Virus record (IMG/VR): IMGVR_UViG_2547132272_000020
Location: 1 to 9,500 of that record
Reading direction: 5' to 3' (one strand)
Length of the DNA: 9,500 bases
Source of the DNA: a virus
Lineage: Duplodnaviria > Heunggongvirae > Uroviricota > Caudoviricetes
The notes under the pieces were generated by a model, which was not told the DNA's origin, ran no database searches, and worked only from the letters and a program-made list of their open reading frames with translations. The translations under genes and the position numbers were made by a program. Below, in pieces: positions 1-9,500 of this stretch. Positions within the stretch are counted from its first letter, which is position 1; each line of letters starts with the position of its first letter.

Positions 1-738
1 AACACCACGGATTTTCAGTTCCCCGGTCATCAAATCACCAGATTTTTTTACATATCGCAGATCAAAATCTGAATAGATATTGCCGGGGTTTATCACGCTG
101 AAATAGCTTTTCTCGCTATCAAGAAGGCAAATCAAAGGAATACCCTTAATGATATCGTTCGCTACCAGCTCGGACTTGTTCCCCTTATAAAGCGGGAACG
201 TACCAAGAACCTTTCCGCCCAGTGTTAATTGAAGTGTCGCGGCATTGGTATTGTTCTGAACGGGGAAAACGATAATCGGGGTTCGTAGCGTCCAGTCTGT
301 ACCTCCATTAACAAAAAACGTCGCGGGAAGCTCCAGAGTCAGCGCGTTTGCAGTGCCGCCAGCAACTCCCGCAATATAATGACCACTCTGAAGCTGCGCT
401 ATCTGTACGAAATGGTTTTCCGAACCACGCGTGGCAAAGTTAGCCACAACGTCATTAAGGGACCAACCTTTCGCGGTTGTTCCTTCCTGCCCACGAATGA
501 CTTTCAACACATCACCGCTTACCGATACCAGGTGACAAATCTCAAATGCAGACTCTTTATTATCGGTAAGCGTAATTTTTGCATAGACACGTTGCCCGTT
601 CGATTTATTTTCAAAATCGGCAGAAAGCAATTTTGCAAATTTAGCCCCTGTACCGGGCATTACCGGAATATCAGTCTGAATCGTGGTGATATCACCAGCC
701 AGTGCTGAAACAACGTTATTGCCAAATCCAAGAATCAT
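1..738 (-). CDS. phage tail fiber protein, N-terminal part (partial; continues past window start)
   Basis: Minus-strand frame is open from the ATG at 738-736 through position 1; I checked all 246 codons and found no stop. The ATG overlaps the TGA of the upstream gene (ATGA). Translation starts MILGFGNNVVSALAGDITTIQTDIPVMPGTGAKFAKLL...KITLTDNKESAFEICHLVSVSGDVLKVIRGQEG... and contains ...SGDLMTGELKI..., which reads like the N-terminal region of enterobacterial myophage tail fibers. Position directly after the gp48/gpI-position gene fits. The family call is recollection, not a search. This ORF is absent from the supplied track because it runs off the window. Confidence 0.75.
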   Translation of the reverse strand, partial: MILGFGNNVVSALAGDITTIQTDIPVMPGTGAKFAKLLSADFENKSNGQRVYAKITLTDNKESAFEICHLVSVSGDVLKVIRGQEGTTAKGWSLNDVVANFATRGSENHFVQIAQLQSGHYIAGVAGGTANALTLELPATFFVNGGTDWTLRTPIIVFPVQNNTNAATLQLTLGGKVLGTFPLYKGNKSELVANDIIKGIPLICLLDSEKSYFSVINPGNIYSDFDLRYVKKSGDLMTGELKIRGV

Positions 739-1361
739 TTTTGAATCACCGTTGTTGCATAGGAATAAATAAAAGGGAGTTTTACATATTTCTGGTCAAT
801 GGCATCTTTCAGAAAATAGCCTATACCATCGCCATACTCTGGTATCTGAATAGAAAAAACGCTGTCCGATACTGTCACACTCACATCAAAAGTGTGCTGC
901 AACGGCGGGTCTATTCCGTTTTTTCCATGAATGAACCGCGCCACACGTCGCTTTAACCAGTCAATGCAGAAATGCGAACCGTCAGCCTTATAAAAATTCC
1001 ACGTTAATATTCGTTTGAAATAATCATCAGGTACATACGATGCCTGCCCCGGAACATAATTCCGCATTGCCGCATAAGGGATTGTATTGTATTCAATGGT
1101 ATCGTATGCGCCGCGTGCAATAGCCTCCTCGGAAACCTGTAGTAAAGGCCTTTCAACGCCATAAATCCCGAGTGCAATCCAGTCCAGCAATTGCCCGGTT
1201 ATTGATTCCGATGTCCAGCATGGCAATGCCAGATTGTTGAGTGAATCGAGGTATTCCTGAGCAATTTCATTGTATGCATCAAAGAACGCAACAACATTCG
1301 GATCATCTCTGTACTGCACAAATGGATAAGCAGGGAGAATTTTCTCAGTCAGATATTGCAT
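735..1361 (-). CDS. baseplate/tail protein in the Mu gp48 (DUF2313-type) or P2 gpI position
   Basis: The track gives 735..1469, but its first 36 codons lie inside the J-like gene. The ATG at 1361-1359 (MQYLTEKILPAYPFVQYRDDPNVVAFFDAYNEIAQEY...) is preceded by CAGGT about 8 nt upstream and overlaps the J-like stop by 17 nt. Its stop overlaps the tail-fiber ATG. Function is assigned mainly by synteny between baseplate J and tail fiber. Confidence 0.55.
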   Translation of the reverse strand: MQYLTEKILPAYPFVQYRDDPNVVAFFDAYNEIAQEYLDSLNNLALPCWTSESITGQLLDWIALGIYGVERPLLQVSEEAIARGAYDTIEYNTIPYAAMRNYVPGQASYVPDDYFKRILTWNFYKADGSHFCIDWLKRRVARFIHGKNGIDPPLQHTFDVSVTVSDSVFSIQIPEYGDGIGYFLKDAIDQKYVKLPFIYSYATTVIQK

Positions 1362-2571
1362 ACTTGTTGACCTGAACCTGTGATGCCACCGTTGAAAAAT
1401 AGGAATAGGTATCGCCATAAACCAGGCTTGTGTCTTTCGCCGGAAGAACAATATGGCCGTTAATACCAATGCTCACACTGATTGTTGAGATCAACGTCGC
1501 ATCAACCAGCAACCTGACGGAACTGGTAAAAATATCCTGGATACGCAGAAGATTTATCGGGTGTCCGACTTCAATTGAATTGATGTAATCAGCAACGTTT
1601 TGCTGCACAGCCATAGCAATACCCGCCGGATCAACATAATCATCAGACACCGTGTTCCAGGTGATTAGCACCATGACGTTTTGTGATGACGGGATAACGA
1701 ACGGCACCTGATAAACGTCCGGTGAAACGGTTATTGAAACCGTGCGTTTTTCCACTGCCGCACCGGATGGATTGCTAACATCGTTGGTCAGTTTCGAAAT
1801 ATCCGGTACAGATTTGTAAATCGCATAAGCCACATCATACGGATCACCGCCACCAACAACCGCAACCCATTTCCCCAGCGACGACTGCCGGAAAGAAATC
1901 AGGTTTTCTCGCACACCGCTTACTGATTTGAGCATCGCTTTAAAGCAATCCGGTGTTCCCTGCACACCAAACATGCCGGACTCCATAACTTCGGCGCGAT
2001 ATGATGCCCATGTCTGCGCCTCCTGACCGGGCATACCTGCGGTAAGGTTCGTGCATTTTACAGGCTGGTCTTTGGGTACTGATGTAATGACCTGCGTTAC
2101 AGTCCCTTCCGGTACAGCCCATGAGCCTGACGTTGTGGCCACACAGTAGACTGGCTCAGTCTGCCCGCTTTCCGGTACCACCGTATCGCGGGAAACCGCA
2201 TACTGGTAGTTACCATCTCCAACCACAAATCCTTTAGGGATACCAAACCCCGGCAACGCCTCAAACACCACGTATACCGCCGTATTTGTACTTAATCCCT
2301 TCTGTGCTCCATAAATGTTTCCGAGTTGCATCAGTAACGGAATATTTGCGCCGTATGGGCTTACGGAGTTAATAAGGTCCACCCGCGCCTGGTCTATTAA
2401 TGCCAGCGCCCCGACTGCCGTGCTGGCAAGGTCTGTAATAAGTCCCGCAGGAAGGTTGGCTGTATATCCAGGTACTTTTTCAGCAACTCTGGTGATAAGA
2501 TTTGCGAGCAAATCATTGGGTGGCGTAGGCTGCGCACCCGCACTGGTCATAGTAATTGGTATTTCTGACAT
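1345..2571 (-). CDS. baseplate J-like protein (Mu gp47 / P2 gpJ / T4 gp6 class)
   Basis: A 408-codon ORF (MSEIPITMTSAGAQPTPPNDLLANLITRVAEKVPGYTANLPAGLITDLASTAVGALALIDQARVDL...). Size and position (before the gp48-like and tail fiber genes) match the baseplate J family, and the N-terminal region resembles J-family proteins from memory. No recognisable Shine-Dalgarno precedes the ATG at 2571; the upstream sequence is AT-rich and is the antisense of the RBS of the divergent 158-aa gene. Confidence 0.7.
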   Translation of the reverse strand: MSEIPITMTSAGAQPTPPNDLLANLITRVAEKVPGYTANLPAGLITDLASTAVGALALIDQARVDLINSVSPYGANIPLLMQLGNIYGAQKGLSTNTAVYVVFEALPGFGIPKGFVVGDGNYQYAVSRDTVVPESGQTEPVYCVATTSGSWAVPEGTVTQVITSVPKDQPVKCTNLTAGMPGQEAQTWASYRAEVMESGMFGVQGTPDCFKAMLKSVSGVRENLISFRQSSLGKWVAVVGGGDPYDVAYAIYKSVPDISKLTNDVSNPSGAAVEKRTVSITVSPDVYQVPFVIPSSQNVMVLITWNTVSDDYVDPAGIAMAVQQNVADYINSIEVGHPINLLRIQDIFTSSVRLLVDATLISTISVSIGINGHIVLPAKDTSLVYGDTYSYFSTVASQVQVNKYAISD

Positions 2572-2608
2572 ATTTATTTATCACTTGAATACATTATAAG
2601 GAGATATA

Positions 2609-3085
2609 ATGCGGTTCTATTTCAACAAAAAAGGTCTTTCTGGTATTTCTGTATCAAGCGGAAGGAGTAGTGGTGGCTGTGGAACATTAATTGGAGTTGT
2701 CTTTATACTTTATTTAATTGGCCATTTTTCATCACCTTCCGATGAAGATATTAAAAATGAATCATCATCTTATAAGACAGCAGTCGTTAAAAGCGACAAA
2801 ATAATTTCCGAAATCTGCGATCAGTTTAGCACTGATGATTCCGCAAAAATATTTTTTAATTCAAATCTAAACAAACATTGGTATAAAACAAAAGTTAAAG
2901 TAAATTCACTATCAGATCAAAGATTATCTGCGATTGATTTCAAAAATCCAGAATTAAAGTATGAAATAAGAATGTCTGATTCAAGACCATTAAGAGTAGG
3001 GGATATTATTTCCGTTGAATTTGTACCTACTGAATTCAGTAAGTATTCATGCGAAATCAGTGGCACAATAGGTAAGTACAAGTAA
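2609..3085 (+). CDS. hypothetical membrane-anchored protein (AT-rich cargo gene); predicted basic N-terminus, one TM helix, ~115-aa C-terminal domain
   Basis: Strong RBS: AAGGAG ends about 7 nt before ATG 2609 (ttataaggagatataATG). The N-terminus MRFYFNKKGLSGISVSSGRSSGG is basic, followed by the hydrophobic stretch CGTLIGVVFILYLIGHF and then an acidic stretch SSPSDEDIKNESS. Stop TAA at 3083-3085 is followed immediately by a perfect hairpin terminator. Composition is markedly more A+T-rich than the tail genes. No family recognised. Confidence 0.65.
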   Translation: MRFYFNKKGLSGISVSSGRSSGGCGTLIGVVFILYLIGHFSSPSDEDIKNESSSYKTAVVKSDKIISEICDQFSTDDSAKIFFNSNLNKHWYKTKVKVNSLSDQRLSAIDFKNPELKYEIRMSDSRPLRVGDIISVEFVPTEFSKYSCEISGTIGKYK

Positions 3086-3090
3086 CCTCA

Positions 3091-3123
3091 AAAAAAACAG
3101 CCCGCTGAACGCGGGCTGTTTTT
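3091..3123. terminator. bidirectional intrinsic terminator between convergent cargo genes
   Basis: aaaaaaACAGCCCGCtgaacGCGGGCTGTttttt: a perfect 9-bp GC-rich stem (3097-3105 / 3111-3119) with a 5-nt loop, flanked by an A-run on one side and a T-run on the other, so each strand gets hairpin plus U-tract. It sits between the stop of the 158-aa gene (3085) and the stop of the minus-strand gene (3122-3124). Confidence 0.8.
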
Positions 3124-3511
3124 AATATACGCCACGAATAAGATCTTGGGTAAAAACATCACATCCTTCGCTACCTAATTGCAGTCTTTTCTTAAAGTAC
3201 TCAATAATACCGTCATTATGAACGCCATTTTTGGAAATTTTTAACCACGTATTGCTCCATTCTATACTTTGGAGTTTTGTTAAAGCCGCTTTTTCATTTC
3301 CTTCACTAACCAAGCGACACGATTCTGATAGTTGATCAGTTACAATCATTTCATTTCTCATATGCTGAAGCAATTGTCGCTGTTCTTCGCTTAAAGTAAC
3401 ATCTTGATTAGTAATGAGTCTTTCTGATTTTTCAATTGGCGTACCAATCGCACACCAAGAGACGAATAAAATTGTAAATAAAGGGAGTGTAATTTTTATA
3501 CTGACCGACAT
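3122..3511 (-). CDS. hypothetical secreted/periplasmic protein with N-terminal signal peptide (AT-rich cargo gene)
   Basis: The track gives 3122..3517 starting at a GTG. The ATG two codons downstream (3511-3509) is preceded by GAGGTG and gives MSVSIKITLPLFTILFVSWCAIG|TPIEKSERL...: short polar n-region with Lys, hydrophobic core, small residues before a likely signal peptidase I site. It is not a lipobox (no [GAS]-C). The mature part has two Cys. Composition is AT-rich. No family recognised. Confidence 0.6.
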   Translation of the reverse strand: MSVSIKITLPLFTILFVSWCAIGTPIEKSERLITNQDVTLSEEQRQLLQHMRNEMIVTDQLSESCRLVSEGNEKAALTKLQSIEWSNTWLKISKNGVHNDGIIEYFKKRLQLGSEGCDVFTQDLIRGVY

Positions 3512-3517
3512 AATCAC

Positions 3518-3830
3518 CTCATTATCAAATGTTCATGCGGATTTTATCAACGGTTTCCCTCTATTCAAATCAGACTTTACATCCATGAGCTATTGAGTAT
3601 GATTATGCGCATGAGGCGTCGAAACCTCTTTCACGCGGCCTAGACCAACCCCGTCAGTGTTGGATTTTTTATGCCTACAATTCAGTGATGGCACAATGTG
3701 CGGTCACATCCCCGATCAATGTCGGGAGGGCGACGAATACAACACCCGAAAGGGAAATAAGTCCGCGGTTTCGTGAAGCCGTTTCGAACCTCCTGGCACC
3801 ACAATTTCGAAAAAATTTCACGAGGTTTCT
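3518..3830. promoter_or_regulatory. divergent control region and long leader upstream of the antirepressor gene, with repeated motif and a hairpin plus T6
   Basis: Three copies of a motif TCGAAA(C)-N3-4-TTCACG: 3618-3635 (direct), 3772-3789 (inverted) and 3805-3822 (direct, abutting the GAGG Shine-Dalgarno of the antirepressor gene). Hairpin CCAAC-N8-GTTGG followed by ATTTTTT at 3646-3670. Candidate plus-strand sigma70 promoter TTTACA (3576-3581), 16-bp spacer, TATGAT (3598-3603). Direct repeats TTATCAA / TTATCAA / TATTCAAAT at 3522-3571. All sites are read by eye. Confidence 0.35.
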
Positions 3831-4388
3831 ATGACCAGCCAATTAATTCCCGTATTCAACGGCATTGTTTCAAACGAAACTACCCTTCTCTGCAACGCTC
3901 GCGATCTGCACACCTTTCTCGAAGTAGGTAAACGCTTTGCTACTTGGATCACCGAGCGAATCGGCGAGTATGAATTCATAGAAAATCAGGACTACATAGC
4001 TATTTCCCAAAAACGGGAAATAGGTCACGGACGAGGGAAAAAGGACTACCACCTCACCCTGGACACCGCCAAAGAACTGGCAATGGTCGAGCGCAACGAA
4101 AAAGGCCGCCAGATCCGCCGATACTTCATCGAGTGCGAGAAGAAGCTGCGCGAGGATACCACCAGCACACAATCCCCTCTGAATGTTGACATCATCATGC
4201 GCGTCAGAAACGGCTCGGTTACCCACATTGAGCACCACAAATCAGGCTCAGTTATAACCACAGAATGGGCAATTCACTTACTACGCAAAAGTGGATGGAT
4301 TGTCATGCCACGCGATGAACTTCTTAACACGCCACTGGCCCAACTGATGCCCGAAAATTTGACTCAAACCGGAACCTGCGTCCGGTAA
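3831..4388 (+). CDS. AntA/AntB-family phage antirepressor-like protein (185 aa)
   Basis: GAGG lies 5 nt before ATG 3831. The translation MTSQLIPVFNGIVSNETTLLCNARDLHTFLEVGKRFATWITERIGEYEFIENQDYIAISQ...KDYHLTLDTAKELAMVERNEKGRQIRRYFIECEKKLRE matches my recollection of the AntA N-terminal domain signature (LH.FLEVG..F..WI..RI..Y.F.E..D... YHLTLD.AKELAMVERNEKG...R.YFIECE) found in enterobacterial prophage antirepressors. Orientation is opposite to the tail genes. The 3' end overlaps the 3' end of the convergent gp25-like gene by 25 nt (4364-4388). Confidence 0.8.
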   Translation: MTSQLIPVFNGIVSNETTLLCNARDLHTFLEVGKRFATWITERIGEYEFIENQDYIAISQKREIGHGRGKKDYHLTLDTAKELAMVERNEKGRQIRRYFIECEKKLREDTTSTQSPLNVDIIMRVRNGSVTHIEHHKSGSVITTEWAIHLLRKSGWIVMPRDELLNTPLAQLMPENLTQTGTCVR

Positions 4389-4711
4389 CTGGTCCCATTA
4401 AAAAACACAACATCGATGTTATAGGTGGGGTTCTCTGCCCCATCTACCTTTGAAATTGCCAGCGATGCAAAATACCCGGCAAACTGTTGCTGAACCATGT
4501 TCACATAGTAGTCCGGGTAAATTTGCTGCACGATGCACTGCTGCGCTGGAATGCCGTAATTCGCGTAAAACGGCGACTCCCCCAACCCCAGCTTTAACGT
4601 CTGAATGAGCGTCGTCAGCCAGCCGTAGGAGAAATCACCGCTGGCGTCAGATTCTACAGCAACCCATTTTTTGTTGCCGTTCGCGTCGGTGACGCGGCCC
4701 CATGTTCTCAT
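4364..4711 (-). CDS. putative baseplate wedge protein, gp25 / P2 gpW / Mu gp46 class (115 aa)
   Basis: AAGG lies about 7 nt before ATG 4711. Size (115 aa) and position between the spike and baseplate J genes fit gp25-like proteins. The segment GLGESPFYANYGIP has the same G-E-(6 residues)-Y-G-x-P spacing as the signature I recall from gpW/TssE-type proteins (for example ...GSRVMRRDYGS... in P2 gpW). This is recollection and needs a profile search. Confidence 0.5.
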   Translation of the reverse strand: MRTWGRVTDANGNKKWVAVESDASGDFSYGWLTTLIQTLKLGLGESPFYANYGIPAQQCIVQQIYPDYYVNMVQQQFAGYFASLAISKVDGAENPTYNIDVVFFNGTSYRTQVPV

Positions 4712-4714
4712 GCG

Positions 4715-4879
4715 TCAACCTTTCAAGTAAATTAGGGTACCGGTAGCCAGAGCGGTACAAATGATCCACGCTACTGGAGTCAGAATATGCCGAATACCCT
4801 GACATACTGCGATTATTCTCGCAGCCTTATCAGCTCCTTGTGGGGTTGTCTCAGCCTTAAGAATCAGTTCGCTATCCAT
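4715..4879 (-). CDS. small hypothetical membrane peptide B (54 aa), translationally coupled to the downstream gp25-like gene
   Basis: Not in the track (below size cutoff). ATG 4879-4877 is preceded by AAAGG 6 nt upstream. Translation MDSELILKAETTPQGADKAARIIAVCQGIRHILTPVAWIICTALATGTLIYLKG: polar N-half and a ~21-residue hydrophobic C-terminal segment. Its TGA stop (4717-4715) lies 3 nt before the ATG of the 115-aa gene. Its start overlaps the stop of ORF A by 8 nt. Confidence 0.4.
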   Translation of the reverse strand: MDSELILKAETTPQGADKAARIIAVCQGIRHILTPVAWIICTALATGTLIYLKG

Positions 4880-5039
4880 TTAGAACCTTTATGATCTCTG
4901 CGATTCCCGGAAGCGATTTAGCAACTGCAAACCCTCCGATAACTATAAGAACTGCATAAAACATTCTTCTCAGAACCGGACTTCTTTCGAGCAATTTTAG
5001 AGCTTCCACAATCCAGTCTCCTCCGCTAAAATTAATCAC
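4872..5039 (-). CDS. small hypothetical membrane peptide A (55 aa from GTG; 30 aa if started at the internal ATG 4964)
   Basis: Not in the track. GTG 5039-5037 is preceded by GGAGG with a 6-nt spacer (TTGGAGGTCTTCCGTG). Translation (M)INFSGGDWIVEALKLLERSPVLRRMFYAVLIVIGGFAVAKSLPGIAEIIKVLNG, with a hydrophobic C-terminal segment. Stop TAG is at 4874-4872. Start codon choice is uncertain. Confidence 0.35.
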   Translation of the reverse strand: MINFSGGDWIVEALKLLERSPVLRRMFYAVLIVIGGFAVAKSLPGIAEIIKVLNG

Positions 5040-5084
5040 GGAAGACCTCCAAACATACGTAATTATCCCTTGCCTTATTCAAGG

Positions 5085-5126
5085 TCAGAAACAGAAAGCC
5101 CCGACTGTTTGCCCAGTCGGGGCTTT
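5085..5126 (-). terminator. intrinsic terminator downstream of the spike gene (hairpin is symmetric enough to act on both strands)
   Basis: AAAGCCCCGACTG tttgcc CAGTCGGGGCTTT: perfect 13-bp stem (5095-5107 / 5114-5126) with a 6-nt loop. On the minus strand it is followed by UUUCUGUUUCUG (5094-5085). It lies 39 nt after the spike stop (5165). Confidence 0.7.
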
Positions 5127-5164
5127 CGCTTTATGGATAGAATTTAAAGTGAAATGAACCGGTA

Positions 5165-5878
5165 TTAACCCGGATTTGGTTTCTTTGACGTGATCGTGCT
5201 GTTGCCGCTTTGAACCCCAGTCACATCGTGGCTGTGACCGCTGGCGCTGACACCTTTTATCATCGCGTCGTTTTGCACAGTAAGCGGGCCAATCAGCGAA
5301 GCGGTTGTATCCTTCATCTGGGCTTTGTCCTGGACGATCGGTCCGTTGAGGTGAATTTTCCCGTTCAGGAAAATATCTTCGGCCTCGAGGTAAACAGCTT
5401 TCGACTTTTGCCTGATTTCTTCCGGTGCCACCGTTACCGAGCTACTGCCGTCCTCTGTTTTGAGGATCGCGCCATCCGGACCGTACAAAACGATCTTTTG
5501 CGGATCTTCGTCGGACCAGTCCTTGTTTGCCAGTGGCACGAAAAACAGTGGAGTGAGCGACATCGAGTAAGAGAGCGTCGCCATACCGGTTCCCAATCCG
5601 GACACACCGCGCAGGGATACATCAGCGGCAATTGTTACTCCTCGATCGCCCGGCTGTATCGGGTAACGAATATACGGGAATGTGGCGACAGGGATTGTTA
5701 TCTGCGGAAAGTTGATCCCCTCCGGCAGCATATCAAACTGAACTGTCACTATCTGCCCGCTGACACCGACAACATGGCAGGGCAATTCACGACCTTTAAG
5801 CTCGGCTTGCTGGTTACCAGAACTGGTCATCATCTCCGACAGCGTTCGGAGAAACGGTAATTTTTGAGCGTTTGACAT
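5165..5878 (-). CDS. baseplate spike protein (P2 gpV / Mu gp45 class), 237 aa
   Basis: ATG 5878-5876 overlaps the TAA of the upstream gene (TAATG). Position follows the hub-like gene. The C-terminal region ...MIKGVSASGHSHDVTGVQSGNSTITSKKPNPG carries an H-x-H motif (5228-5236) near the end, as expected for metal-binding apexes of gp5/gpV/gp45-type spikes. Family is assigned by order, size and this motif. Confidence 0.65.
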   Translation of the reverse strand: MSNAQKLPFLRTLSEMMTSSGNQQAELKGRELPCHVVGVSGQIVTVQFDMLPEGINFPQITIPVATFPYIRYPIQPGDRGVTIAADVSLRGVSGLGTGMATLSYSMSLTPLFFVPLANKDWSDEDPQKIVLYGPDGAILKTEDGSSSVTVAPEEIRQKSKAVYLEAEDIFLNGKIHLNGPIVQDKAQMKDTTASLIGPLTVQNDAMIKGVSASGHSHDVTGVQSGNSTITSKKPNPG

Positions 5879-6885
5879 TACACCCTCGCCCAGTTCTCAG
5901 CATATGCCTCAAATACCGTCACCCAGGCATCGCCATCGGCTGTCAGATACGAACCAATGTGTCTGACCGATTTCACAAGAAATTTCCCGGTGAACGTGGT
6001 CGAATTTTTTGCGATAACGCTGGGTGCCGTTGTATTAGCCATCACAATCGACGCAGCACCTGAATATAGCCCCTCCGGCAGTTTAACCACATCACCACAT
6101 CTGATATCGCCCCTCATAGGGCATTTGAAGCTGACGGTAAACGGCGCTATCCATGTCGGCTGCCCGACCAGTTCATGGGCATGAATTGTTTTTGGCTCAC
6201 CCCACTTTGCCGATGCGTTATCGTAGATTCGTATTCTGTCGGAAAGAATACTGATGGCGATTCCGCTGTATTTCTCATCGCGCATCATTGCAATTGAAGC
6301 ACTACGGAGGACCATAGCCAGCGAACCAATATCTTCGTAGGTTCCATTCCACGGTTCCGGCAAAACGAGGCTGTCGCTGACAGTACAATCGATCAACTTA
6401 TTCGGAAATGCCTTTTGCAACGCACGGGAGATTACATCACCAACCTTTTCCCCTTTAAGCCCCTCCCCCTCGATAGAGAACGGTTTACCATCATCTGTTT
6501 TGCGTACGGTTGGATTTATTACCAGGTTTAAGGTCTGGTTCGTGCCGATCCAGTTGGCATAGGCCAGATAAATTTCGCCATAAATAACCTCACCCTGTTG
6601 CTGTGGATTTGCCAAAGGCAATCCCTCAACAAAGCCCGCTTTCATACGGACCAGACACCCCTGCAAACTCACGCTTTGCTTCAGCATGTCGATAGGCAAA
6701 CCGTATATTGTGAGCATCGTTCCTGAATTCACTACATCAAGACCCGCTACCTCCACATCAAATTCAACATGTAGCCCACACCCGGGGGTTTTACTGGTAT
6801 CAAAAGGCCCGATAGGTTTACCGTTGCAATCCACTGGCGGCTTGCCTGTTTTAGGATTGATGATTTCCAGTCGGTAATAGCGCAT
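5878..6885 (-). CDS. putative baseplate hub protein (Mu gp44 / P2 gpD position), 335 aa
   Basis: The ATG at 6885-6883 overlaps the upstream TAA (TAATG), and its own TAA overlaps the spike ATG. Assignment is by synteny (immediately upstream of the spike gene) and size; I recognise no motif with confidence. Confidence 0.5.
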   Translation of the reverse strand: MRYYRLEIINPKTGKPPVDCNGKPIGPFDTSKTPGCGLHVEFDVEVAGLDVVNSGTMLTIYGLPIDMLKQSVSLQGCLVRMKAGFVEGLPLANPQQQGEVIYGEIYLAYANWIGTNQTLNLVINPTVRKTDDGKPFSIEGEGLKGEKVGDVISRALQKAFPNKLIDCTVSDSLVLPEPWNGTYEDIGSLAMVLRSASIAMMRDEKYSGIAISILSDRIRIYDNASAKWGEPKTIHAHELVGQPTWIAPFTVSFKCPMRGDIRCGDVVKLPEGLYSGAASIVMANTTAPSVIAKNSTTFTGKFLVKSVRHIGSYLTADGDAWVTVFEAYAENWARV

Positions 6886-7151
6886 TACGAAACCTCAAAC
6901 TGATTAGAACTTTCACGAAAAACGAGTTTCCCCGGCGAGCAAGGCAGCGCCAGATTGATGTCGTAATTGTCAGGTGACGCGATCAACGGTGTGTACACAA
7001 TCACGTCGCCAGAACTGTCTTTCAGTTCCAGATAGTAACGATTTGCATACAGATTAAACGGAACGCGGGCGAATGTTTCATATTTTCCGATTCTGGCCGT
7101 GAACTGAAACGGACCTCGCCCGTCCGGTTTGAAAGGAATTAACGTTGTCAT
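6885..7151 (-). CDS. small tail-module protein of unknown function (88 aa)
   Basis: ATG 7151-7149 overlaps the TGA of the upstream gene (ATGA). The stop overlaps the start of the hub-like gene. Compact coupling within the structural operon supports a real gene; function unassigned. Confidence 0.45.
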   Translation of the reverse strand: MTTLIPFKPDGRGPFQFTARIGKYETFARVPFNLYANRYYLELKDSSGDVIVYTPLIASPDNYDINLALPCSPGKLVFRESSNQFEVS

Positions 7152-7816
7152 AAGCCAATACCAAACTCCTGCACGACCTGGTTCTTAATACCTGACCACG
7201 ATAGCGGACCGTCTGACGGCATCCCTTTATCAAATTTATCCAGAACGCTCGCCAGCGTCTTTACTGTTTGTTCGACAGATGACAATGGTTGCTCAAATTC
7301 AATCTGCCAGGTGTGCTGCACTTGCTTGTTCTGCTCAGAGAAACCGGATGTATCGATAAACGACCGCATCAGGCAACGCGTATAGATAAACGACGGAGTC
7401 AGAACGGTGTAACAACCGCCATACTGGTTATGCATATCAAGCGCCATTTTCAGCGCCGTGAACGTCATTCCCTTCGTGGTGTAGCCACCGTCCTCCGTTG
7501 ATGCCGGACGGATCATCTGCATGACTACCCGGTTAGGCTTCCTGACGGTCGCATTCGCTGCCGTTACCTGGTTATAGAAATTCAGGTTGCAGATATCCTG
7601 CTGGACCAGCGTTGTCCCGGCCATTGGCGTGAATGCCGCCATCGAGCGTGTACGAATCTCTCCATGCAGCAGACCGTTCGCGATGCTTAGTCCTTCGGTC
7701 AGAACAGCAATCGGCATCACCCCGCCAGGAATTTTCGACGCTATGCCATCAACTAAAAGAATGGGCGAAACTTCAAACGCCAGTTTGAAAGCTTGTCCAA
7801 AGTAATTAAGTGACAT
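7148..7816 (-). CDS. tail-module protein following the tape measure (Mu gp43/N position), 222 aa
   Basis: ATG 7816-7814 lies 3 nt after the tape-measure TAA, with a G-rich stretch (GGGG) upstream. Part of a chain of four translationally coupled genes. Function is by position only. Confidence 0.5.
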   Translation of the reverse strand: MSLNYFGQAFKLAFEVSPILLVDGIASKIPGGVMPIAVLTEGLSIANGLLHGEIRTRSMAAFTPMAGTTLVQQDICNLNFYNQVTAANATVRKPNRVVMQMIRPASTEDGGYTTKGMTFTALKMALDMHNQYGGCYTVLTPSFIYTRCLMRSFIDTSGFSEQNKQVQHTWQIEFEQPLSSVEQTVKTLASVLDKFDKGMPSDGPLSWSGIKNQVVQEFGIGL

Positions 7817-7819
7817 CTT

Positions 7820-9500
7820 TTACCCCGGTATTTGTTGCGTTCCGGCGAGTTGTGCCAGTATGTCGGAACCCGGCGATTGTCGCACCTGAAGCTCAATTAT
7901 TGCGCGGGCATTTTTGCCAGCACCCTGAAGATTATCTCTGGCATTTCTTAGCTGATTCATAATACCAGGGTGTTGATCCAGGGCTCCCTGAATCTGAGGC
8001 AATAATTTAATTAAATATTTTACAGTCTCCATTCTCAAACTTAGATTTCCATCTCTATCAATACGACCTCCGTTATATGCCGTAAGCATTTTTGCCACAT
8101 CGCCTTTATAACGCCGATTCAGATCATTTAAAAAGCGGCCAGCCGCAAGAGTGGATTTATTTGGGTCATAAACATCATCACCCACCAGACCATACTGTTT
8201 TGCGGTGCTATCCCAGAATTGCCACAACCCCTTAGCGAATCTACCTTTTTCATCAGGAGTTCCTCTTGCCAGAGGATTCCACGAAGATTCAACTTCTGCG
8301 ATAGCTGACATCATATTTTTAGGAAGTCGATAAGTATTATTGGCTTGCTCTACAAAGTTCTGAATATTTCTCTTTAAATCATTAGGCATACGGTAATTTT
8401 TATATACATCATCCTGTTTATAAAACTCACCCGTATACTGATTTGTCATCGGGTTTGCTCCCGGCAACGCACCACCGAGATATTTATTTCCAAATGCCGC
8501 AAGAACTGGATCTGCCTGTTCAGCACCAACTCCGGTTCCGGGGAGATATTTATCTTCCCCACCGATCCATTTGATAGCTGACCATATTGCTTTTGCAATC
8601 CGGCTCACCGCCAGAGAAAAATCGTCAAGATCATTTTTAAATTGTTCGCTATTCAGCCACTTACCAAGTTTCTCCAGCCCTTCGCCAGCCTCAGCGAGAA
8701 TTTTCTGAAAATTTCCACCATTCAGAAAACCTTCAATATTGGATGTCAGCCCATCAGATGCACCTGTGATTAGTGGGTTATATCTGGCGAGAGCTGCATA
8801 CCAGGAATTTGATATTCTGTTTCCATTTACCATCAGGTTACTCACCGTATCCTGATAACCTGACTGCATAGCTGGCGTGAGGTAAGCACCGAGCAACCTA
8901 GTATTTGATGCAAATTTCTCGTTCAGTTGGGGGATCTTGTCCAGATTCGCTTCCACCTGGTTAGTTGTCGCGACATCAACAAATCCAAGCCCTTGTCCGT
9001 TGAGAATCCCCTGAGTAAGTCCTGAACCTTTATATTGCTTAACGAGAGATGCAAGCGCGCTCATAAGTTTGGGCAGATTCTTTGCTGCACCATCTCGAGG
9101 ATCAATTCCAAGACTGACCAGACCAGCATAGTTTGGATCATTTGGATTTTTCTGTGCGTTCGCCAGATGCTGAACCAGTTCTTCTGTGCCAGAAAAATAT
9201 GGCGAATAGGTGGCACGTGCGGCCTGCATCTGTGCGGTTTCCATACCCAGCCCCTGAGCCACGCTGTATTGCGCTGCAACCTTGCTCGCCATATATCCGT
9301 ACCCGAAAGCACCGACCGAACCAAGCGCCGCAATTTTGCTCCCCCAGGATACAGTCGTTTTAAACAGCGTTTTCAGTCGTGAATTGGTCGTTTTAAGCGT
9401 TGAATTGATCTGCTTGTAAGTTTTCAGCGTCCCCTGAGCGTTTTTACCCAGACTACTGAGATACTTATCAAATGAACCGCCCCGGGTTTCCTGGAGAGTG
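7820..9500 (-). CDS. tail tape measure protein, C-terminal part with lytic-transglycosylase (SLT)-like domain (partial; continues past window end)
   Basis: The track starts at ATG 9292, but the same frame is open upstream through 9499 (69 further codons, no stop: ...GKNAQGTLKTYKQINSTLKTTNSRLKTLFKTT...), so the gene is truncated by the window. Residues ~320-420 of the track ORF (about 8033-8335) contain ...MMSAIAEVESSWNPLARGTPDEKGRFAKGLWQF..., matching the family-1 lytic transglycosylase active-site signature (catalytic Glu in E-S, codon 8290-8288). The position before the baseplate genes and the low-complexity Ala/Gln/Gly-rich flanks fit a tape measure. Confidence 0.8.
   Translation of the reverse strand, partial: TLQETRGGSFDKYLSSLGKNAQGTLKTYKQINSTLKTTNSRLKTLFKTTVSWGSKIAALGSVGAFGYGYMASKVAAQYSVAQGLGMETAQMQAARATYSPYFSGTEELVQHLANAQKNPNDPNYAGLVSLGIDPRDGAAKNLPKLMSALASLVKQYKGSGLTQGILNGQGLGFVDVATTNQVEANLDKIPQLNEKFASNTRLLGAYLTPAMQSGYQDTVSNLMVNGNRISNSWYAALARYNPLITGASDGLTSNIEGFLNGGNFQKILAEAGEGLEKLGKWLNSEQFKNDLDDFSLAVSRIAKAIWSAIKWIGGEDKYLPGTGVGAEQADPVLAAFGNKYLGGALPGANPMTNQYTGEFYKQDDVYKNYRMPNDLKRNIQNFVEQANNTYRLPKNMMSAIAEVESSWNPLARGTPDEKGRFAKGLWQFWDSTAKQYGLVGDDVYDPNKSTLAAGRFLNDLNRRYKGDVAKMLTAYNGGRIDRDGNLSLRMETVKYLIKLLPQIQGALDQHPGIMNQLRNARDNLQGAGKNARAIIELQVRQSPGSDILAQLAGTQQIPG

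Follow-up and report, generated by a model that had tools for sequence, protein, structure and literature searches.

An accessory cassette of small membrane-peptide genes behind a mobile leader, inserted between two baseplate genes of a lambdoid prophage

We analyzed the interval between two baseplate genes in a 9,500-nucleotide stretch of viral DNA of the class Caudoviricetes (positions 1 to 9,500 of IMG/VR record IMGVR_UViG_2547132272_000020; this whole stretch is called the window hereafter), which carries the minus-strand tail/baseplate module of a lambdoid prophage that closely resembles Escherichia phage Rac-SA53 (flanks 96% identical). The interval lies between the gene for a gpV-like spike and a gene for a 115-amino acid (aa) gp25-like protein, and contains a leader followed by two short open reading frames (ORFs), ORF-A and ORF-B (Table 1). 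Comparison with related prophages indicates that it is an accessory small-membrane-peptide cassette inserted between baseplate genes that ancestrally overlapped. A fuller reading, to which we would give an even chance, is that of a portable cassette made of a conserved leader and two independent genes for single-pass inner-membrane peptides, carried by a Rac-SA53-type lambdoid prophage with a contractile tail and expressed late.

In prophages of Serratia fonticola and Erwinia toletana that have the same hub, spike, 115-aa and baseplate J genes, the end of the one and the beginning of the other of the spike and 115-aa genes share 4 nucleotides (nt), and a covariance model of the leader (R1, described below) found no leader at these Serratia (L185) and Erwinia (L187) loci (loci used for comparison are given by L numbers). 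Because the 2 genes overlap directly in these relatives, we take the interval of the window to be an insertion. In Rac-SA53 and pPE4, the sequence of the window is conserved up to GGCAAGG and then again from the ATG of the 115-aa gene, and the slot between these points holds neither ORF-A nor ORF-B but a single different gene, rac58, encoding a 45-aa peptide (phrog_6632). In other E. coli prophages the same slot contains ORF-A, ORF-B, and 2 rac58-like genes, and another variant has an extra gene for a 35-aa peptide with a second hairpin. A first-pass annotation of the window, made from its letters alone, had proposed an inserted module of small membrane peptides, and this proposal agrees with the absence of both cassette and hairpin from the Serratia and Erwinia relatives and with the different peptide in the Rac-SA53 slot.

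The substitution patterns of both ORFs are those of coding sequences. Seven alleles of ORF-B contain 41 variable sites, which are distributed 7/4/30 over codon positions 1/2/3 (chi-square approximately 29, 2 degrees of freedom). Between the window and the STEC711 allele (L005) there are 27 synonymous and 6 non-synonymous differences, with a ratio of non-synonymous to synonymous substitution rates (dN/dS) of 0.03, and in the same comparison the ratio is at least 1 in the 2 shifted sense frames and in 2 of the 3 antisense frames of the ORF-B region. Close alleles of ORF-A encode an identical protein, all 3 of their differences being synonymous, and dN/dS is 0.13-0.22 when the window is compared with the 65%-identity homologues of an E. 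coli and a Salmonella prophage (L011 and L012). Protein searches returned 20 relatives of ORF-A, with the residues EALK..E..PVLRRMFY invariant among the homologues, and 14 relatives of ORF-B. Those with a named source all come from Escherichia or Salmonella, and no Pfam domain was found in any of them. In these 2 genera the reading frames are kept at 57-98% identity across different genomic contexts, and 52 complete E. coli genomes carry the cassette, with 88-100% identity. Altogether, these comparisons indicate that ORF-A and ORF-B are real genes under purifying selection.

It could be argued that the 2 ORFs are chance frames in an intergenic spacer, or that a plus-strand ORF of 35 codons (4787-4894) is the real product, since both ORFs are short and the Prokaryotic Genome Annotation Pipeline (PGAP) calls nothing in the interval in identical E. 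coli loci (among the matches listed, the one annotated exception is a divergent partial match in a lysis cassette). Small phage membrane proteins are often left out of annotation. The plus-strand ORF corresponds to antisense frame 0, in which dN/dS is 1.5-4.9 versus 0.03 in the frame of ORF-B, and was rejected; the substitution pattern refutes the chance-ORF explanation, and with the frames also kept in several contexts in Escherichia and Salmonella, this alternative retains practically no probability. The first-pass annotation was thus right both in reading the minus-strand ORFs as genes and in expecting pipelines to miss them, and the plus-strand product that it had named as an alternative shows no constraint.

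Each of the 2 peptides has one 17-residue hydrophobic stretch with a mean Kyte-Doolittle hydropathy of 1.9-2.0. The hydrophobic segments noted at first sight are therefore borne out by this crude scale, although that of ORF-A, which is Gly/Ala-rich, is marginal on it. The segment of ORF-B is predicted by hydropathy to form a C-terminal transmembrane (TM) helix, and every peptide encoded behind the leader has a single hydrophobic segment. ORF-A and ORF-B overlap by 8 nt (4872-4879), and a gap of 3 nt separates the stop of ORF-B from the ATG of the 115-aa gene (4711); this geometry, the ribosome-binding sites, and the coordinates of both frames had all been given correctly in the first-pass annotation. 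Across homologues, the start column of ORF-A contains GTG, TTG, or ATG, with a Shine-Dalgarno (SD) sequence present in each individual case. The G+C content is 41% in ORF-A and 47% in ORF-B versus 49-52% in the flanking baseplate genes, a modest gap. Neither peptide matched a family in Pfam, NCBIfam, PADLOC, or PHROG, a tblastn search with ORF-A and a blastn search with the cassette against 50,697 phage records gave no match, and our literature search found no paper on the ORF-A and ORF-B peptides or on the leader.

Table 1. Positions of the cassette, its predicted control elements, and neighbouring features in the window.
Feature	Position	Strand	Description
Baseplate spike, gpV-like	5165..5878	-	237 aa; left border of the insertion, upstream late gene
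Conserved cassette leader	5060..5144	-	85 nt; A-tract, hairpin, TTTCTG repeats, flank, SD
Leader A-tract			ATAAAGCGAAAG; 5' of the hairpin, conserved in all contexts, even between co-directional neighbour genes
Leader hairpin	5094..5127		G+C-rich, intrinsic-terminator type; 14 pairs, 9 of them G-C, T-rich tail; found by terminator scan
Leader flank			ACCTTGAATAAGGCAAGG(G)AG; small CCTTG/CAAGG hairpin and the SD used by whichever ORF comes first
Sigma-70 promoter candidate	5090-5085 and 5067-5062	-	TTCTGA, 17 nt, GATAAT; 3/6 and 5/6 of consensus
Predicted mini-ORF	5036..5056	-	ATG TTT GGA GGT CTT CCG TGA; 6 codons, holds the SD of ORF-A
ORF-A	4872..5039	-	55 aa (MINFSGGDWIVEALKLLERSPVLRRMFYAVLIVIGGFAVAKSLPGIAEIIKVLNG); GTG at 5039, stop at 4872, GGAGG (5050-5046) plus 6 nt
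Candidate alternative start of ORF-A	5009-5007	-	GTG behind GGAGGAG (5024-5018); would give 45 aa
Putative antisense promoter	5005..5032	+	TCCACA, 16 nt, TAAAAT (-10 at 5027-5032); inside ORF-A codons 3-12, directed toward the hairpin
Hypothetical cis-antisense RNA	5039..5138	+	approximately 95-100 nt; inferred, would end at the hairpin
ORF-B	4715..4879	-	54 aa (MDSELILKAETTPQGADKAARIIAVCQGIRHILTPVAWIICTALATGTLIYLKG); ATG at 4879, stop at 4715, AAAGG plus 6 nt
gp25-like sheath initiator (label from fold and synteny)	4364..4711	-	115 aa, phrog_7986; downstream late gene, starts 3 nt past the ORF-B stop
antA/antB antirepressor gene (ant)	3831-4388	+	
sRNA-Xcc1 (RF02221) match	3721-3805	+	69.7 bits versus gathering score 53; directly upstream of ant
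ORF between ant and baseplate J	3122-3517	-	
ORF between ant and baseplate J	2609-3085	+	

To describe the leader, covariance model R1 was built from 20 distinct copies; in the window it scores 97 bits at the leader and has no other match. Among these 20 copies the hairpin varies, and 4 of its stem pairs show compensatory changes (AU/GC/CG, GC/AU, CG/UA), while the adjoining flank, with an invariant part of 24 nt, is almost unchanged. The leader is conserved across 4 genomic contexts. By blastn it was found in 1133 of 5426 complete E. coli genomes (approximately 21%), with up to 6 copies in each and 1354 copies in this E. coli set, and viral contigs, scanned twice, yielded 40 loci in one scan and more than 120 in the other. 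In the scanned contigs, the first ORF behind the leader belongs to only 3 families, the ORF-A, rac58, and KYKR types. A contig scan with the pattern CCTTGRWKAAGGCAAGG was too degenerate and returned almost only chance matches in unrelated phyla. At the leader of the window and at that of 7 related loci, no Rfam family reaches its threshold.

The leader hairpin is symmetrical and has a T-rich tail on either strand, and the equivalent hairpin was called as a terminator on both strands in L004 and L013; by these features it is probably a bidirectional terminator. The first-pass annotation had assigned it to the spike gene, an assignment that does not hold because the hairpin belongs to the cassette, with which it moves to lysis cassettes and to another tail slot. 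Two other interpretations of the leader were dropped: the invariant palindromic flank as a repressor operator within the sigma-70 promoter candidate, because the -10 box of this candidate is not conserved, and the hairpin as an integron-like attC site, because no integrase is associated with it and the ORFs of an array are not separated by hairpins.

Most copies of the leader cassette are located inside phage lysis cassettes. The leader and peptide genes were found between the endolysin and Rz genes in L004, L011, L012, L025-type loci, SPN3UB, PhiR5_2, and one O157:H7 strain; in O157:H7 the lysozyme gene and Rz enclose a 60-aa gene and a 43-aa gene. In LH50-c (L004), a homologue of ORF-A with 88% nucleotide identity lies between a SAR-type lysozyme gene and Rz; it is preceded by the same hairpin and followed by a different gene, for a 57-aa peptide. 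This cassette is flanked by 2 diverged lysozyme 3' ends of approximately 75 nt (L004 2790-2865 and 3347-3421), the second of which is annotated by PGAP as a partial lysozyme pseudogene. Judged from this arrangement, the duplicated lysozyme end is the scar of acquisition of the cassette by recombination. Two distant homologues of ORF-A, P0013 from E. coli and P0015 from Salmonella, are encoded between a Phage_lysozyme gene and Rz in lysis cassettes that include a class II holin. Homologues of ORF-B occur elsewhere after a phrog_1115-type peptide gene, as the second gene of an array downstream of an M15 endolysin gene. A chimeric ORF-A/rac58 peptide is encoded in an array of small ORFs that directly precedes a 183-aa gene and the tape-measure gene, and this copy on the tape-measure side comes after 2 other small TM ORFs that follow a 147-aa gene. 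This distribution indicates that the leader and the peptide genes travel as a unit among lysis cassettes and tail operons. In 2 of these loci, the region preceding the holin gene has an above-threshold match to Rfam STnc100 (L025 3035-3240, 165 bits; L012 3477-3670, 64.5 bits), a position that suggests the leader region of the late promoter.

The arrays hold 1 to 4 single-TM peptide genes, and the partner combinations encountered were A+B, A+B', A+IRWW-41, B'+B+IRWW-28, and B'+43aa. Since the partners vary, the peptides appear to be independent genes and not an obligate pair, and by sequence comparison a pool of at least 5 peptide families is shuffling behind the same leader. Pseudogenes are frequent among the peptide genes (L007, L011, L022, L035). 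The other peptides behind the leader match only PHROGs without an assigned function (phrog_6632, 1115, 4493, and 3246) and have no Pfam match. Kinship between the ORF-A and rac58 families is suggested mainly by the chimera P0020, which matches phrog_6632 at 9e-8 and the holin family phrog_565 only at E = 0.058; hhalign of the 2 families gave a probability of only 24%. Many of the peptides encoded behind the leader (L001, L005, L012, L013, L015, L025, L060) end in (I/V)(R/K)WW right after the hydrophobic helix. This motif is carried by rac58, by the 45-aa peptide of SPN3UB, and by the 41-, 37-, and 28-aa peptides, ORF-A and ORF-B are without it, and P0020 joins the N-terminus of ORF-A to such an ending. 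In Rac-SA53 (L182, 20.4-24.7 kb), pertussis-like toxin genes follow Q, and LT-IIa enterotoxin genes directly follow the endolysin gene, which is the position of the peptide cassette in other prophages. Among the matches listed, the genomes with an identical or near-identical cassette are mostly porcine enterotoxigenic E. coli, plus O141:H4 and O139:H1 isolates.

Rac-SA53 encodes a Q antiterminator, and its lysis, head, and tail genes share one strand, which indicates that the tail genes of the window belong to a Q-dependent late operon. The first-pass annotation had placed a sigma-70 promoter between the hairpin and ORF-A, from which the wedge gene downstream would be driven. Such a candidate is present, but its -35 box matches the consensus at only 3 of 6 positions, the promoter scan of the window did not report it, and its -10 box, which lies outside the conserved leader, is lost in other copies (GATGAT in L008, AGAAGT in Rac-SA53, GAGAAA in L011). 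The 17-nt spacer of this candidate is the invariant palindromic flank itself. By scan and alignment, no sense promoter between hairpin and ORF-A is conserved across the copies compared, and other copies of the cassette have as little as 24 nt from the hairpin tail to the SD. Because such a promoter is lacking, we infer that Q-antiterminated read-through is probably the normal route of peptide expression; the peptides would then appear only late, once RNA polymerase modified by Q transcribes past the hairpin.

Translation of the peptide genes could be linked to that of their neighbours. The stop codon of the predicted mini-ORF overlaps the GTG start of ORF-A (GTGA), and 8-codon equivalents with the same GTGA overlap (MGREVYSL, MCREACSL, and MGREVLSL) are found in L011, L012, and L025-type loci. 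The mini-ORF is thus predicted to be conserved before 2 different peptide families, in each case after a conserved SD; it also contains a small hairpin burying the second SD. At the other end, only 1-7 nt lie between the stop codon of the final peptide gene and the gene that follows it, which is Rz, the sheath initiator gene, or a gene for a 60-aa lipoprotein; this holds for the window, Rac-SA53, L005, L025-type loci, SPN3UB, and the M15-endolysin array. With such a spacing, termination-reinitiation would be possible, and the translational coupling proposed in the first-pass annotation fits the spacing of the genes. Ribosomes would pass from the mini-ORF to ORF-A, ORF-B, and the 115-aa sheath initiator gene by termination-reinitiation, a chain that would re-establish the coupling of the 115-aa gene to the spike gene lost through the insertion.

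A second level of control may lie on the opposite strand. The promoter scan reported an antisense promoter-like site within the first codons of ORF-A in the window, and a site is found at the same place in L004 (LH50-c) and in L012 (Salmonella). Its -10 box occupies +8..+13 of ORF-A, and in the unrelated first ORFs of the KYKR type this position reads TATACT on the antisense strand. The synonymous divergence of ORF-A is 0.17 in codons 2-12 versus 0.71-0.79 in codons 13-55. The hypothetical RNA starting from this site would be complementary to the start of ORF-A with its SD as well as to the mini-ORF and the invariant flank; its predicted fold has a single-stranded 5' part, followed by a small hairpin and then a terminator (z = -5.2). 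The Rfam model of sar (RF00262), the antisense RNA of phage P22, matches the plus strand of the window at 5069-5130 with 24 bits, below its gathering score of 43. In the reciprocal search, R1 was run unfiltered over the whole P22 genome, and its 2 best matches were the sar terminator and the arc-ant spacer (22 bits, E approximately 0.002); the next match had 13 bits, and other P22 terminators scored 10-12 bits. In the P22 record, the arc stop is followed by the sar terminator hairpin, a 32-nt leader, and the ant ATG; Psar is annotated from +7 of ant, with TATACT as its first 6 bases on the sar strand, and the start of sar is placed at -1. These features point to a sar-like antisense RNA that would run from the first codons of ORF-A to the hairpin and limit or delay translation of ORF-A, and we consider the chances that it exists to fall just short of even. 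Several points weigh against it. The promoter lies within coding DNA, so that its conservation is confounded. The low divergence of codons 2-12 could equally be explained by the internal SD (GGAGGAG) together with the GTG at codon 11, or by recent recombination of the leader with the first codons. In addition, the similarity to sar is below the Rfam threshold and resides largely in the stem of the terminator hairpin.

All 3 first-ORF families have a second in-frame start with an SD, 10-13 codons in (GTG11 in ORF-A, M14 in rac58, and M13 in the KYKR type), and these second starts sit just beyond the predicted antisense RNA. The candidate second start of ORF-A, the conserved leader, the sar-like geometry, and the usual location between endolysin and Rz had all escaped the first-pass annotation. 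Because each family has this arrangement, the RNA might switch the peptides between long and short isoforms. In a broader form of the same idea, the leader would be a portable sar-like cis-antisense module that gates toxic membrane peptides and the essential genes coupled to them (Rz, sheath initiator), with an RNA of approximately 80-100 nt running from the first start of whichever peptide gene is present, over the SD and the flank, to the hairpin. As the paired region is identical among co-resident prophages, such antisense RNAs could also cross-regulate in trans; the leader is found in Salmonella phages as well. We regard this broader form as rather unlikely.

With regard to the function of the peptides, our tentative first choice is that they act in the inner membrane late in infection and tune lysis, possibly via the membrane potential that triggers holins, or via holin, SAR endolysin, or spanin. 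A lysis-linked late function is placed first because most copies occupy lysis cassettes with coupling to Rz and because there is no sign of a prophage promoter. Some observations speak against this choice. The site between endolysin and Rz also hosts non-lysis morons, for example the LT-II toxin genes of Rac-SA53, so that location alone does not prove a role in lysis. Most homologous cassettes are placed beside the endolysin gene, yet the window copy is in a tail operon, and in tail operons HK97 gp15 is a precedent for exclusion (PMC3594210). No peptide matches a holin, antiholin, or defence model in Pfam, NCBIfam, PADLOC, or PHROG, and the GATAAT of the window copy could give some expression in the lysogen.

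The best surviving alternative, although in our view improbable, is that the cassette is a classical moron with its own sigma-70 promoter in the repressed prophage and that its peptides block the entry of superinfecting genomes like HK97 gp15. This would account for small single-TM proteins inserted in a tail operon and for the TTCTGA, 17 nt, GATAAT arrangement of the window copy, and the shuffling of families, the frequent pseudogenes, and the lower G+C content (41-47% vs 49-52%) are typical of accessory or defence genes. However, the promoter candidate is weak (-35 box 3/6), was missed by the scan, and has no -10 box in most copies. Moreover, the terminator is upstream, so transcripts from a cassette promoter would enter the sheath initiator gene, and no similarity to YebO/gp15, SieA, Imm, or PADLOC models was found. 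Less probable still is a type I toxin-antitoxin (TA) system for prophage maintenance or abortive infection, in which one or more hydrophobic peptides would be the toxin and the antisense RNA the antitoxin. The arrays, however, hold 2-4 different peptides instead of one toxin, no toxin promoter was found, and the hairpin would end upstream transcripts in the lysogen. The resemblance lies in the size and hydrophobicity of the peptides (54-55 aa and thus <60 aa, one segment each), in the predicted antisense RNA over SD and start, in a mini-ORF coupled to the peptide start as mok is to hok, and in a leader more strongly conserved than the coding sequence. To this is added an Rfam match to ohsC on the antisense strand, which at 22.8 bits is weak and far under the threshold of 50, and no type I toxin family of Pfam was matched. 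A role of the peptides in the structure or assembly of the baseplate, in which they would be made along with the sheath initiator because the tail needs them to assemble or to penetrate the membrane, would suit both the coupling geometry and a location flanked by the spike and gp25-like genes, but is very improbable given relatives with the same baseplate genes and no peptide genes, an unrelated-looking peptide in the Rac-SA53 slot, and most homologues in lysis cassettes of phages with other tail types.

The genes around the cassette follow a baseplate order. On the minus strand, a tape-measure gene with an SLT domain is followed by 2 small genes, the baseplate hub (phrog_196), the gpV-like spike, the peptide-gene interval, and the 115-aa gene, and then, past the antA/antB antirepressor gene on the opposite strand and 2 low-G+C ORFs, by baseplate J. 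The spike gives a weak match to TIGR01644 phage_P2_V and to the GpV Apex motif, and its homologues in relatives carry a baseplate-protein annotation. The 115-aa protein had been called gp25-like in the first-pass annotation, which proposed a profile search against gp25/GPW models. Neither this protein nor its 37 homologues matched PF04965 (gp25/GPW) at E up to 1, a profile search of the PDB gave no match, and a Foldseek search of the PDB with a structure model gave no significant match. The part of the claim that stands is its position, between the gpV-like spike and baseplate J genes both here and in the Serratia and Erwinia relatives, which fits a sheath initiator; on fold and synteny only, the label is reasonable. 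The ant and 115-aa genes converge, with their 3' ends overlapping by 25 nt (4364-4388) and no terminator between them, and ant transcripts would run antisense via the 115-aa gene, ORF-B, and ORF-A up to the bidirectional hairpin. The sRNA-Xcc1 element upstream of ant also adjoins ant in Rac-SA53 (L001 7201-7284, minus strand, 78 bits) and may be a leader or small RNA tied to this gene. The 2 ORFs between ant and baseplate J have a G+C content of 32-35% versus approximately 50% around them. One encodes 158 aa with an N-terminal hydrophobic segment, the other 131 aa with a signal-peptide-like N-terminus, and neither matched Pfam, NCBIfam, or PADLOC. In other relatives the same position holds rac61/62 or an LprI-family gene, and in Erwinia it is empty, which makes this interval a second variable slot for morons.

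These results bear on what is seen in phage genomes. The purifying selection on ORF-B is among the strongest measurable on 54 codons, yet PGAP does not call the gene in the identical E. coli loci examined. The O157:H7 copy of the cassette lies between the endolysin and spanin genes, beside the genes that set the moment of lysis. Should the peptides prove to tune lysis or to block superinfection, an effect on phage release and on prophage competition in pathogenic E. coli would be possible. If the sar-like RNA is real, a device known from one P22 region would be a widespread mobile control for accessory genes in late operons.

Among known systems, type I TA loci (hok/mok/sok, shoB-ohsC, and hokW-sokW of the Stx prophage Sp5) share with the cassette a small hydrophobic peptide, a leader mini-ORF overlapping the peptide start, and a cis-antisense RNA, here predicted, over the initiation region. 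The cassette differs in that its hydrophobic segment is C-terminal, several different peptides are encoded in a row, and neither a toxin promoter nor similarity at the family level was detected. hokW-sokW, the type I toxin locus of an Stx prophage, is reported to facilitate phage release (PMC8621323), which counts in favour of the link with lysis. The second in-frame start predicted here recalls P22 sieB/esc with the sas RNA (PMC12197685) and the holin-antiholin pair S107/S105 of lambda, and of the 2 starts, the predicted antisense RNA would cover the first alone. Unlike in these systems, the isoforms are predicted from sequence, and there is no match to a holin or SieB family. The immI region of P22, arc-sar-ant, resembles the cassette in layout. 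In both cases an upstream stop is followed by a bidirectional hairpin, a leader of 30-50 nt with an SD, and an ORF start, and an antisense -10 box at +7..+13 means that the RNA would run from the start codon to the hairpin. Both elements are inside a late operon among tail genes, and the similarity, although weak, is reciprocal (24 bits for the sar model in the window; the sar region as the best matches of R1). In contrast to sar, the cassette RNA is hypothetical, its score of 24 bits is below the gathering threshold of 43, its target would be the ORF-A membrane peptide and not the antirepressor ant (the prophage's own ant is approximately 650 nt away on the other strand), and the cassette has no sense promoter controlled by Arc/Mnt.

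HK97 gene 15, the first described moron, is located just before the tape-measure gene (PMC3594210), and its product, gp15, is a small inner-membrane protein that acts in superinfection exclusion (Juhala et al. 2000; Cumby et al. 2012, summarised in PMC3594210). Like this moron, the cassette adds a gene for a small membrane protein between tail genes that are direct neighbours in relatives, its G+C content is somewhat below that of its neighbours, and the related array of L013/L014 lies just upstream of the tape-measure gene. Unlike it, the cassette is an array of 1-4 shuffling genes with no sequence relation to gp15/YebO. It also departs from a moron in the sense of Hendrix and Juhala: its terminator is upstream of ORF-A and part of the unit, with none downstream, and ORF-B ends 3 nt before the next gene. 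Upstream of the cassette genes, the window-type copy has only the 3/6 and 5/6 promoter candidate, and no promoter is conserved. On these comparisons, the cassette is moron-like, and it is unusual in its terminator-first leader, its shuffling arrays, its wide distribution, and its possible sar-like control.

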